From NCBI RefSeq assembly GCF_041248615.1, contig NZ_CP158427.1: a DNA stretch of 64,000 nt; one strand, written 5' to 3'. A program made the position numbers. Below are positions 52,101 to 55,100 of the stretch, piece by piece. Positions within the stretch are counted from its first letter, which is position 1. The number at the start of each line of letters is the position of its first letter. Origin of the DNA: Escherichia coli. Lineage in GTDB: Bacteria > Pseudomonadota > Gammaproteobacteria > Enterobacterales > Enterobacteriaceae.

Positions 52101-55100
52101 TTAAATTAAAAATGAAGTTTTAAATCAATCTAAAGTATATATGAGTAAACGGCACTGTTGCAAATAGTCGGTGGTGATAAACTTATCATCCCCTTTTGCT
52201 GATGGAGCTGCACATGAACCCATTCAAAGGCCGGCATTTTCAGCGTGACATCATTCTGTGGGCCGTACGCTGGTACTGCAAATACGGCATCAGTTACCGT
52301 GAGCTGCAGGAGATGCTGGCTGAACGCGGAGTGAATGTCGATCACTCCACGATTTACCGCTGGGTTCAGCGTTATGCGCCTGAAATGGAAAAACGGCTGC
52401 GCTGGTACTGGCGTAACCCTTCCGATCTTTGCCCGTGGCACATGGATGAAACCTACGTGAAGGTCAATGGCCGCTGGGCGTATCTGTACCGGGCCGTCGA
52501 CAGCCGGGGCCGCACTGTCGATTTTTATATCTCCTCCCGTCGTAACAGCAAAGCTGCATACCGGTTTCTGGGTAAAATCCTCAACAACGTGAAGAAGTGG
52601 CAGATCCCGCGATTCATCAACACGGATAAAGCGCCCGCCTATGGTCGCGCGCTTGCTCTGCTCAAACGCGAAGGCCGGTGCCCGTCTGACGTTGAACACC
52701 GACAGATTAAGTACCGGAACAACGTGATTGAATGCGATCATGGCAAACTGAAACGGATAATCGGCGCCACGCTGGGATTTAAATCCATGAAGACGGCTTA
52801 CGCCACCATCAAAGGTATTGAGGTGATGCGTGCACTACGCAAAGGCCAGGCCTCAGCATTTTATTATGGTGATCCCCTGGGCGAAATGCGCCTGGTAAGC
52901 AGAGTTTTTGAAATGTAAGGCCTTTGAATAAGACAAAAGGCTGCCTCATCGCTAACTTTGCAACAGTGCCCCCTCGGCTACCACCTCCATTGTCGTTTTC
53001 AGAAGACGGCTGCACTGAACGTCAGAAGCCGACTGCACTATAGCAGCGGAGGGGTTGGATCCATCAGGCAACGACGGGCTGCTGCCGGCCATCAGCGGAC
53101 GCAGGGAGGACTTTCCGCAACCGGCCGTTCGATGCGGCACCGATGGCCTTCGCGCAGGGGTAGTGAATCCGCCAGGATTGACTTGCGCTGCCCTACCTCT
53201 CACTAGTGAGGGGCGGCAGCGCATCAAGCGGTGAGCGCACTCCGGCACCGCCAACTTTCAGCACATGCGTGTAAATCATCGTCGTAGAGACGTCGGAATG
53301 GCCGAGCAGATCCTGCACGGTTCGAATGTCGTAACCGCTGCGGAGCAAGGCCGTCGCGAACGAGTGGCGGAGGGTGTGCGGTGTGGCGGGCTTCGTGATG
53401 CCTGCTTGTTCTACGGCACGTTTGAAGGCGCGCTGAAAGGTCTGGTCATACATGTGATGGCGACGCACGACACCGCTCCGTGGATCGGTCGAATGCGTGT
53501 GCTGCGCAAAAACCCAGAACCACGGCCAGGAATGCCCGGCGCGCGGATACTTCCGCTCAAGGGCGTCGGGAAGCGCAACGCCGCTGCGGCCCTCGGCCTG
53601 GTCCTTCAGCCACCATGCCCGTGCACGCGACAGCTGCTCGCGCAGGCTGGGTGCCAAGCTCTCGGGTAACATCAAGGCCCGATCCTTGGAGCCCTTGCCC
53701 TCCCGCACGATGATCGTGCCGTGATCGAAATCCAGATCCTTGACCCGCAGTTGCAAACCCTCACTGATCCGCATGCCCGTTCCATACAGAAGCTGGGCGA
53801 ACAAACGATGCTCGCCTTCCAGAAAACCGAGGATGCGAACCACTTCATCCGGGGTCAGCACCACCGGCAAGCGCCGCGACGGCCGAGGTCTTCCGATCTC
53901 CTGAAGCCAGGGCAGATCCGTGCACAGCACCTTGCCGTAGAAGAACAGCAAGGCCGCCAATGCCTGACGATGCGTGGAGACCGAAACCTTGCGCTCGTTC
54001 GCCAGCCAGGACAGAAATGCCTCGACTTCGCTGCTGCCCAAGGTTGCCGGGTGACGCACACCGTGGAAACGGATGAAGGCACGAACCCAGTGGACATAAG
54101 CCTGTTCGGTTGGTAAGCTGTAAAGTTAGATGCACTAAGCACATAATTGCTCACAGCCAAACTATCAGGTCAAGTCTGCTTTTATTATTTTTAAGCGTGC
54201 ATAATAAGCCCTACACAAATTGGGAGTTAGACATCATGAGCAACGCAAAAACAAAGTTAGGCATCACAAAGTACAGCATCGTGACCAACAGCAACGATTC
54301 CGTCACACTGCGCCTCATGACTGAGCATGACCTTGCGATGCTCTATGAGTGGCTAAATCGATCTCATATCGTCGAGTGGTGGGGCGGAGAAGAAGCACGC
54401 CCGACACTTGCTGACGTACAGGAACAGTACTTGCCAAGCGTTTTAGCGCAAGAGTCCGTCACTCCATACATTGCAATGCTGAATGGAGAGCCGATTGGGT
54501 ATGCCCAGTCGTACGTTGCTCTTGGAAGCGGGGACGGAAGGTGGGAAGAAGAAACCGATCCAGGAGTACGCGGAATAGACCAGTTACTGGCGAATGCATC
54601 ACAACTGGGCAAAGGCTTGGGAACCAAGCTGGTTCGAGCTCTGGTTGAGTTGCTGTTCAATGATCCCGAGGTCACCAAGATCCAAACGGACCCGTCGCCG
54701 AGCAACTTGCGAGCGATCCGATGCTACGAGAAAGCGGGGTTTGAGAGGCAAGGTACCGTAACCACCCCATATGGTCCAGCCGTGTACATGGTTCAAACAC
54801 GCCAGGCATTCGAGCGAACACGCAGTGATGCCTAACCCTTCCATCGAGGGGGACGTCCAAGGGCTGGCGCCCTTGGCCGCCCCTCATGTCAAACGTTGGG
54901 CGAACCCGGAGCCTCATTAATTGTTAGCCGTTAAAATTAAGCCCTTTACCAAACCAATACTTATTATGAAAAACACAATACATATCAACTTCGCTATTTT
55001 TTTAATAATTGCAAATATTATCTACAGCAGCGCCAGTGCATCAACAGATATCTCTACTGTTGCATCTCCATTATTTGAAGGAACTGAAGGTTGTTTTTTA

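Follow-up and report, generated by a model that had tools for sequence, protein, structure and literature searches.

The 64,000-nt window (the whole stretch of DNA that was analysed) carries what is, taken as a whole, very probably a deletion derivative of an In37-type class 1 integron. A single 217-bp deletion, with AA at both ends, took the first 83 nt of intI1, the intergenic region with its LexA box, and nearly all of attI1, and it is the only event separating this locus from intact In37-type forms. The sequence shows that this copy yields no IntI1, and that it has no attI1 at which cassettes could be captured or the first cassette excised by attI1 x attC recombination. The allele and every one of its components are real, ordinary, and already published. 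The features on which this account is built are collected in Table 1.

Table 1. Features of the integron and its flanks, in positions of the window
Feature	Position	Strand	Remarks
IS26	52151-52970	+	820 bp; inverted repeats at its termini, GGCACTGTTGCAAA (52151) and TTTGCAACAGTGCC (52957-52970); annotated IS26 transposase in an identical record
IRi	52991-53015	+	25-bp terminal inverted repeat, start of the 5'-conserved segment; exact TGTCGTTTTCAGAAGACGGCTGCAC
intI1 remnant	53193-54123	-	931 nt; stop at 53193; without start codon or PintI1 promoter
Cassette promoter Pc, variant PcW-TGN-10	54091-54119	+	read directly and checked by script; identical in intact relatives
Junction of the 217-bp deletion	54121-54124		GCTGT-AA-AGTTAGAT; AA at 54122-54123 is microhomology common to both ends
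qacE101 leader, copy 1	54125-54226	+	5' portion of the aac(6')-Ib-cr hybrid cassette; cassette start 54126, after the G of GTTAGAT
Linker, qacE101 to canonical aacA4 cassette start	54227-54256	+	30 nt; read from sequence
aac(6')-Ib-cr CDS	54236-54835	+	199 aa from ATG 54236; PGAP start is GTG 54281; from translation and the annotation of the identical record
blaOXA-1 cassette	54896-55899	+	ends at a G/TT core site
catB3 cassette	55900-56614	+	ends at a G/TT core site
arr-3 cassette	56615-57217	+	ends at a G/TT core site
qacE leader, copy 2	57217-57318	+	start of the 3'-conserved segment, then qacEdelta1
qacEdelta1	57326-57673	+	3'-conserved segment; translates in full
sul1	57667-58506	+	3'-conserved segment; translates in full

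The locus is identified as the remnant of a class 1 integron of In37 form by IRi and the 5'-conserved segment (5'-CS), the attC-bounded cassettes, the 3'-CS (3'-conserved segment), as well as the order aacA4cr, blaOXA-1, catB3, arr3, which is the In37 composition given in PMC5034289. Boundaries and translations place the cassette junctions at 54895/6, 55899/900, 56614/5 and 57217/8; the aac(6')-Ib-cr cassette ends at 54895, inside its attC (CAAACG/TT at 54890-54897), and its ORF has R and Y, the residues defining the cr variant. Throughout the array, identity to both intact and deleted relatives is 99.98-100%, and homology to every compared integron begins at 52990/52991, whatever the upstream context. 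IS26 was considered as the cause of the truncation and rejected, as the adjacent copy stops 20 bp short of IRi, at 52970, whereas intI1 is truncated at its far end; a second copy, inverted, lies at 25833-26652. An Rfam scan of positions 50000-64000 returned no RNA family.

Pairwise alignment to pKPC_CAV1321-244, in which intI1 (1014 nt) is intact, leaves a single 217-nt gap in otherwise 100% identical sequence. The remnant corresponds, at 100% identity, to nt 84-1014 (the last 931 nt) of the intact gene, and an intact intI1 encoding the 337-aa tyrosine recombinase is not present. Absent are nt 1-83, comprising 27 codons and 2 nt of codon 28, which agrees with the original prediction of a 5' truncation costing roughly 27 N-terminal codons; the end of similarity that it placed at 54122 is also sound, the AA microhomology allowing the breakpoint to lie anywhere in 54121-54123. 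Because it has neither a start codon nor a PintI1 promoter, the remnant is a pseudogene, and the PGAP annotation of an identical record flags intI1 as pseudo ("incomplete; missing N-terminus"). No second intI1 able to act in cis was found within the 64-kb window; in p14408_2, the plasmid that best matches the window, a full-length intI1 lies about 19 kb away, beyond the window.

The loss of attI1, also predicted, was confirmed in two ways. In the alignment to an intact class 1 5'-CS, attI1 falls inside the one 217-nt gap and is not retained beside intI1, and a search of the 64-kb window with a 28-mer of the attI1 end, allowing up to 3 mismatches, gave no match. What is left of the site is its last 2-4 nt (..AAAG) together with the composite core GTTAGAT (54125-54131). 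The LexA box of the intact relative sits within the deleted interval, with no exact copy in the window, and the PintI1 and inactive P2 promoters are located in the deleted intI1-attI1 intergenic region. The junction of the allele known as 'delta-intI1 931', or as the 217-bp attI1 deletion, reads GCTGTAAAGTTAGAT, and both of its defining features, the 931-nt remnant and the 217-bp gap relative to In37, are found here. The form of this junction points to illegitimate or slippage-type recombination as the probable route of the deletion.

The cassette promoter is retained and directed into the array. Its -35 TGGACA (54091-54096), 17-nt spacer, TGG (TGN motif, 54111-54113) and -10 TAAGCT (54114-54119), with a G two bases upstream of the -10 hexamer, together constitute the complete sequence of PcW-TGN-10. 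The retention of Pc, the C-to-G change that gives an extended -10, and the alteration of the overlapping intI1 codon had all been anticipated, and each can be read directly, the TGN form being present instead of the unmodified weak -10. This G of the TGN motif also occupies the second position of intI1 codon 32: the codon is CCA (Pro) here, where a C in its place would give CGA (Arg), the outcome being R32P. With CAC (His) at codon 39, the allele is P32_H39 of Jove et al. 2010 (PMC2791841), who reported a 15-fold increase in PcW activity with TGN-10, in the intact context, and a 336-fold lower excision activity for IntI1 P32_H39.

Retained promoter drive of the cassette array is plausible from the promoter's sequence. 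Pc, which ends 2-4 bp before the junction, would initiate at about 54125-54128 and read into the leader and the four cassettes, as the literature supports. Downstream of the -10, the discriminator and start site change from GTAATGCAAG in the intact form to GTAAAGTTAG here, which could alter Pc output. A simple sigma-70 consensus scan of 53900-54400 returned no promoter, neither Pc nor a leader promoter; the miss of Pc is expected, its weak -10 being dependent on TGN, and such a scan is uninformative for non-consensus promoters.

A second copy of the qacEdelta1 leader had been noticed ahead of aac(6')-Ib-cr, and this observation stands: the two copies are identical at 102 of 102 positions, far beyond chance, and have the length of the hybrid-cassette leader (~101 bp). 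The Shine-Dalgarno sequence of the first copy, GGGAG, lies at 54222-54226, and the linker that follows is bounded by the core-site-like G/TTAGAC and G/TTAGGC and provides the ATG at 54236. A review (PMC8876359) describes a 101-bp segment of the qacE 5'UTR fused to aac(6')-Ib-cr, which carries the qacE promoter and drives transcription, and records qacE101 fused also to aacA29a/b and aadA16 (citing Poirel 2001 and Quiroga 2007). The promoter reported within qacE101 would, on this literature, add to transcription from Pc. When the 5'UTR RNA was folded with and without the 217 nt, neither form was more structured than shuffled controls (z = -0.50 and +0.78), so there is no structural argument for altered translation. 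The further proposal that the leader had been fused to the truncation point was not upheld, since in intact relatives it already stands straight after attI1 (...CCCTAAAACAAAG/TTAGATGC...). This comparison shows that the aac(6')-Ib-cr cassette normally begins, at its 5' end, with the qacE-type leader, which adjoined attI1 before the deletion and was not made by it.

Other origins of the junction were weighed against a microhomology deletion. In one, IntI1 itself made the deletion by recombining attI1, site-specifically, with a secondary site within intI1. IntI1 is able to use secondary sites of loose consensus, and this origin would explain the position of the deletion's right end, no more than 4 nt from the attI1 G/TT crossover point. 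A canonical crossover there, however, would leave the left-hand sequence unaltered up to a G, and the candidate sites of the intact form predict GCTG/TTAGAT or GCTGTAATG/TTAGAT, whereas GCTGTAAAG/TTAGAT is observed; a plain 2-nt microhomology deletion fits the junction, and the parental IntI1 P32_H39 is a poor recombinase (PMC2791841), which makes a deletion by the integrase very unlikely. Had the truncation itself joined intI1 to a qacEdelta1 leader copy, as recombination with the 3'-CS might do, the result would have been a new promoter-leader-gene fusion and a locked array. The exact match of the leader to the one in the 3'-CS, and its start 1-2 nt past the end of intI1 homology, speak for this origin, but where intI1 and attI1 are complete the leader is already found between attI1 and aac(6')-Ib-cr, and such integrons differ by the 217-nt gap only, the fusion is a published feature of the cassette (PMC8876359), and the array is unlocked in relatives. 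We regard it as extremely improbable.

The chance that faulty assembly or sequencing produced the deletion, through collapse of a repeat-rich resistance region, is practically negligible: regions with repeated IS26 and 3'-CS copies do misassemble easily, but the 217-bp interval is flanked by AA only and not by repeats, the same junction occurs in 66 independent plasmid records (complete sequences by title, in most cases) that span seven genera and come from many laboratories, and the deletion has been described in two papers (PMC9238384, PMC6140695). A reading of the deletion as adaptive 'streamlining', with the related option of an aberrant integrase-dependent event (right end 2-4 nt from the attI1 crossover), seems doubtful. 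If it were so, a costly SOS-controlled integrase and a 217-nt upstream leader would be gone and PcW-TGN-10 would be set against the qacE101 leader, with expression of aac(6')-Ib-cr/blaOXA-1 raised or stabilised, or the cost of the plasmid lowered, and this would account for how the allele came to be in at least 66 plasmids of seven genera.

The microhomology deletion in an In37-type parent, which is the preferred reading, is widely distributed. A 48-nt sequence across the junction was found in PLSDB plasmids from Enterobacter (21 of the 66), Klebsiella (18), Citrobacter (13), Escherichia (9), Aeromonas (2), Salmonella (2) and Proteus (1), as well as in 3 complete E. coli genomes (4 plasmid records), and the integron that bears it occurs in at least four different upstream contexts. 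Carriers include pP10159-4 (MF072964), pMS7884A and pIMP4-SEM1 (both HI2 plasmids), and a silver-gull E. coli plasmid (MG516909). Since 66 records have the junction in identical form, we infer that the allele most likely arose once and then spread on IncN, IncHI2, IncC and other plasmids; the copies are all ~100% identical, and for this reason yield no phylogeny of the deletion. Ouyang 2018 (PMC6140695) described pP10159-4 as being without "a 217-bp region containing attI1", and Wyrsch 2022 (PMC9238384) the 'delta-intI1 931' signature, with the structure IS26-delta-intI1-aacA4-blaOXA-1-catB3-arr3-qacEdelta1-sul1..IS6100..mphA-IS26. Literature searches on a qacE cassette with aacA4, or on truncated intI1 with arr-3, returned nothing specific to the junction.

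The original prediction also held the array to be fixed in place, and this is contradicted by variation in the array among plasmids with the identical junction. In an Aeromonas plasmid arr-3 is absent as an exact cassette unit, pEcNDM1 has an additional dfrA27-type cassette, and pEh13_1 has lost the whole array relative to its sibling pEh12_1. The cassettes of the window have attC sites that agree with those in intact integrons, and therefore remain potential substrates for IntI1 provided in trans; the downstream cassettes, with attC intact, would stay movable in this way. The two 102-bp leader copies form a direct repeat, and homologous recombination between them would remove the whole array, making these four genes an unstable unit, as in the siblings above, which differ by exactly 3,092 bp. 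Both outcomes, cassette movement and whole-array loss, are thus seen in sibling plasmids, though the array variants could instead stem from homologous recombination with other arrays rather than from IntI1 in trans.

In practical terms, the 931-nt remnant and the junction together cleanly mark, for epidemiological purposes, a single lineage of In37-type resistance regions, a lineage linked to plasmids with blaIMP-4, blaKPC-2 or blaNDM. PCR or annotation that depends on attI1 or the 5' end of intI1, as with 5'-CS primers, will miss or mis-size the integron.

The closest intact system is the In37-type integron (5'-CS, aacA4cr, blaOXA-1, catB3, arr3, 3'-CS), as in pKPC_CAV1321-244, to which the window is 99.98-100% identical. 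Common to both are IRi, the 3' 931 nt of intI1, PcW-TGN-10, the qacE101-aac(6')-Ib-cr hybrid cassette, the four cassettes with their attC sites, and qacEdelta1-sul1; the window differs in being without the 217 bp, and its integron is unable to make integrase or to capture cassettes at attI1. The 'delta-intI1 931' form (PMC9238384) and the gap in pP10159-4 (PMC6140695) have the same 931-nt remnant, gene order and deletion size, and are the same allele as that of the window. Relative to PcW-TGN-10 and IntI1 P32_H39 (PMC2791841), the hexamers and the 17-nt spacer are shared, as is the C-to-G change located 2 nt upstream of the -10, but here the sequence is replaced from 3-5 nt past the -10, the transcribed leader starts in the cassette and not in intI1/attI1, and the integrase side of the promoter-versus-integrase trade-off is void because the intI1 gene is dead. 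The qacE101 pseudo-cassette (PMC8876359) is the same segment in the same place upstream of aac(6')-Ib-cr, with no sequence difference, although the leader in the window abuts Pc directly rather than attI1. Wyrsch et al. (PMC9238384) described truncation of intI1, in general terms, as caused by IS26 and affecting the 3' end, whereas the window has an internal deletion of the intI1 5' end, with IS26 outside IRi. The IS26-truncated class 1 integrons (IS26-delta-intI1-cassettes) common in Enterobacterales are likewise integrase dead, keep Pc and the cassettes, and serve as epidemiological markers; in these, the 3' end of intI1 and IRi are lost to IS26 and attI1 is kept, while the window retains IRi and the intI1 3' end, having lost the 5' end and attI1 through what is probably an IS-independent microhomology deletion.

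The 5'-conserved segment homology of this class 1 integron extends from 52990 to 54123 and ends there, at the edge of a 217-bp deletion. In a megablast of 53950–54330 (a 381-bp query) against PLSDB, many matches of 100% identity fell into two pieces spanning 598 bp, so those records carry ~217 extra bases. Alignment to pKPC_CAV1321-244 (L001), an intact In37-type relative with full intI1 and attI1, revealed a single 217-nt gap with both flanks completely identical: the intact sequence reads ...TGGTAAGCTGTAA|TGCAAG...CCCTAAAACAA|AGTTAGATGC..., and the window reads ...TGGTAAGCTGTAAAGTTAGATGC... 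over the deletion. The deleted interval includes the intI1 start, the LexA box CTGTTTTTTTGTACAG (L001 4270–4285), of which the window holds no exact copy, and a TTGTTA-14 nt-TACAGT stretch, which is the inactive form of P2; PintI1 also lies within it. attI1 is entirely gone apart from ..AAAG, and, as had been claimed, it is missing throughout the 64-kb window, where a 28-nt probe for its end found no match with three mismatches allowed.

Features of the integron 5' region and of the two leader copies (window coordinates)
Feature	Position	Strand	Remark
IS26	52151-52970		followed by a 20-bp spacer to IRi
IRi	52991-53015		25 bp, class 1 integron
intI1 remnant	53193-54123	minus	stop at 53193
Pc -35	54091-54096		TGGACA, followed by a 17-nt spacer
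Pc TGN motif	54111-54113		TGG
Pc -10	54114-54119		TAAGCT
qacE101 leader, copy 1	54125-54226		upstream of aac(6')-Ib-cr
30-nt segment	54227-54256		between qacE101 leader and canonical aacA4 cassette start
AAC(6')-Ib-cr ORF	ATG at 54236		199 aa
qacE leader, copy 2	57217-57318		in front of qacEdelta1

The dinucleotide AA is the only sequence that the deletion ends have in common, and no insertion sequence is present at the junction. Canonical IntI1 crossover at G|TT would give GCTG|TT.. or ..TAATG|TT.., and the observed junction is GCTGTAAAG|TTAGAT; because such a crossover cannot yield it, we infer an ordinary microhomology-mediated deletion. L001 has its corresponding IS26 in inverted orientation ~229 bp from IRi, a difference in position and orientation which implies that IS26 remodelled this flank independently of the 217-bp deletion. 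The IS26 copy beside IRi forms an inverted pair in the window with another at 25833–26652, ~25.5 kb away.

The original prediction of a 5'-truncated intI1 with a TGN-extended Pc, in which the TGN change alters the overlapping codon, stands in all three respects. The remnant comprises 931 nt, 100% identical to nt 84–1014 of the 1014-nt intI1 of L001, and the first 83 nt (27 codons and two bases of codon 28) are absent. There is no second intI1 elsewhere in the 64-kb window. On p14408_2, an IncN KPC-2 plasmid that the window matches at 100%, PGAP names the remnant 'class 1 integron integrase IntI1, incomplete, missing N-terminus', and flags it as a pseudogene. Pc can be read with both hexamers, spacer and TGN motif, as in the intact L001, which has the same PcW-TGN-10 variant. 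The G of the motif is, on the opposite strand, the middle base of intI1 codon 32, hence a change from Arg to Pro; the remnant has CCA (Pro) at codon 32 and CAC (His) at codon 39. Jove et al. 2010 (PMC2791841) defined PcW-TGN-10, found it in 16.8% of 321 integrons and 15-fold stronger than PcW, and linked it to IntI1 P32_H39, which is 336-fold less active in excision.

The predicted second copy of the qacEdelta1 leader in front of aac(6')-Ib-cr was confirmed, with 102 of 102 positions identical. Its proposed fusion at the truncation point does not hold, since in L001 the leader already stands directly after attI1 as the 5' end of the aac(6')-Ib-cr cassette; the truncation did not attach it. A 2022 review (PMC8876359) describes this 101-bp qacE101 as fused to aac(6')-Ib-cr, aacA29a/b and aadA16, and as carrying the qacE promoter. 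The leader's Shine-Dalgarno sequence, GGGAG (54222–54226), lies 9 nt upstream of the ATG. The start of aac(6')-Ib-cr differs by pipeline, RGI using ATG 54236 (600 nt) and PGAP using GTG 54281 (555 nt). The intervening 30-nt segment has a core-site-like sequence at either side (G|TTAGAC and G|TTAGGC) and ends in AAAAACAAAG, similar to the attI1 end. It provides the ATG and the first seven codons of AAC(6')-Ib-cr, and has the look of a scar left by a previous cassette fusion.

The alignment shows this copy to be without the intI1 start, the PintI1/LexA control region and attI1; it is unable to make IntI1, to capture cassettes at attI1, or to excise its first cassette by attI1 x attC recombination. 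Transcription would start ~6–9 nt past the Pc -10, at ~54125–54128, the first cassette bases, which would shorten the 5'UTR by 217 nt, and the discriminator would be altered by one base (GTAATG to GTAAAG). Loss of ORF-11, a translation aid encoded in attI1 (PMC8876359), should not matter, because the leader brings its own Shine-Dalgarno sequence, and the promoter reported in qacE101 would add Pc-independent transcription. A simple consensus promoter scan detected neither Pc nor the qacE101 promoter, and 5'UTR folding with or without the 217 nt gave structure not above shuffled controls.

The claim that the array is fixed in place fails, as plasmids with the identical junction show four array states. 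The standard four-cassette array is found in most of the records examined. An Aeromonas plasmid (CP077202), which shares the window's IS26/aac(3)-IId flank, is without arr-3 as an exact cassette unit (window 56615–57217), joined within GGCG|TTA (CP077202 7512–7518), so cassette-level change happens in this integrase-dead lineage. pEcNDM1 has an extra dfrA27-type cassette of ~440 bp between the arr-3 attC and the 3'-CS/qacEdelta1 leader (NC_023909 7478–7927), apparently internally shortened and bounded at either end by G|TTA; its source may be an arr3|dfrA27|aadA16 array that lost aadA16 through recombination between qacE101 copies. Differences that fall exactly on cassette boundaries are compatible with IntI1 action in trans as well as with exchange between arrays. 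p14408_2 (NZ_LT599827) has a second, full-length intI1 (record 39297–40310) outside the window, ~19 kb beyond its end in a dfrA19/ISCR1 complex integron; integrase from this gene could act in trans on the attC sites of the defective array. The fourth state is loss of the whole array, seen in pEh13_1 (332,043 bp) against its outbreak sibling pEh12_1 (335,135 bp), and in the same empty form in pP10159-5. The compared flanks of pEh12_1 and pEh13_1 (CP126832 and CP126835) are identical; the two alignments share exactly the 102-nt leader, and the plasmids differ in size by 3,092 bp, the same as the distance from one leader copy to the other. These copies are direct repeats around the entire array. 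Loss of the array as one block is consistent with homologous recombination between the repeats, and the leader duplication makes such loss likely.

A 48-mer centred on the junction, with 24–26 nt on each side, cannot seed on undeleted DNA, as each side is below the megablast word of 28 nt. It matches 66 PLSDB plasmids (Enterobacter 21, Klebsiella 18, Citrobacter 13, Escherichia 9, Aeromonas 2, Salmonella 2, Proteus 1), and four plasmid records from 3 of 5,426 complete E. coli genomes. Since at least ~851 PLSDB records, with or without the deletion, cover ≥80% of the 381-bp query, the deleted allele is a minority form, at a rough ratio of 1 in 13. It occurs on IncN (pEcNDM1, p14408_2), IncHI2 (pMS7884A, pIMP4-SEM1, pEh12_1) and IncC plasmids (p6Pmi283-NDM, pP10159-5), and on one Aeromonas plasmid, with at least four different sequences upstream of IRi.

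The finding is real and the observation correct, though the interpretation was partly wrong. The locus is not a functional integron platform, intI1 being incomplete and attI1 absent; it agrees in every test with an In37 derivative and with the published delta-intI1 931/217-bp deletion allele, and by sequence criteria with PcW-TGN-10 and the qacE101 hybrid cassette. The allele and its parts are already in the literature. The In37 array has been described (PMC5034289), and Ouyang et al. 2018 (PMC6140695) reported 'a 217-bp region containing attI1' missing from an In37-bearing transposon remnant in pP10159-4 (MF072964), which is among the 48-mer matches. Wyrsch et al. 2022 (PMC9238384) tracked 29 gull E. 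coli isolates by the signature 'delta-intI1 931', in the structure IS26-delta-intI1-aacA4-blaOXA-1-catB3-arr3-qacEdelta1-sul1..IS6100..mphA-IS26; the window has this gene order. Beyond published knowledge there is one small addition, on the nature of the 931 signature. According to Wyrsch et al., intI1 truncation signatures in general arise almost exclusively through IS26 and affect the 3' end, whereas 'delta-intI1 931' is an internal 5' deletion, corresponding to IS-independent loss of the 5' end and attI1.
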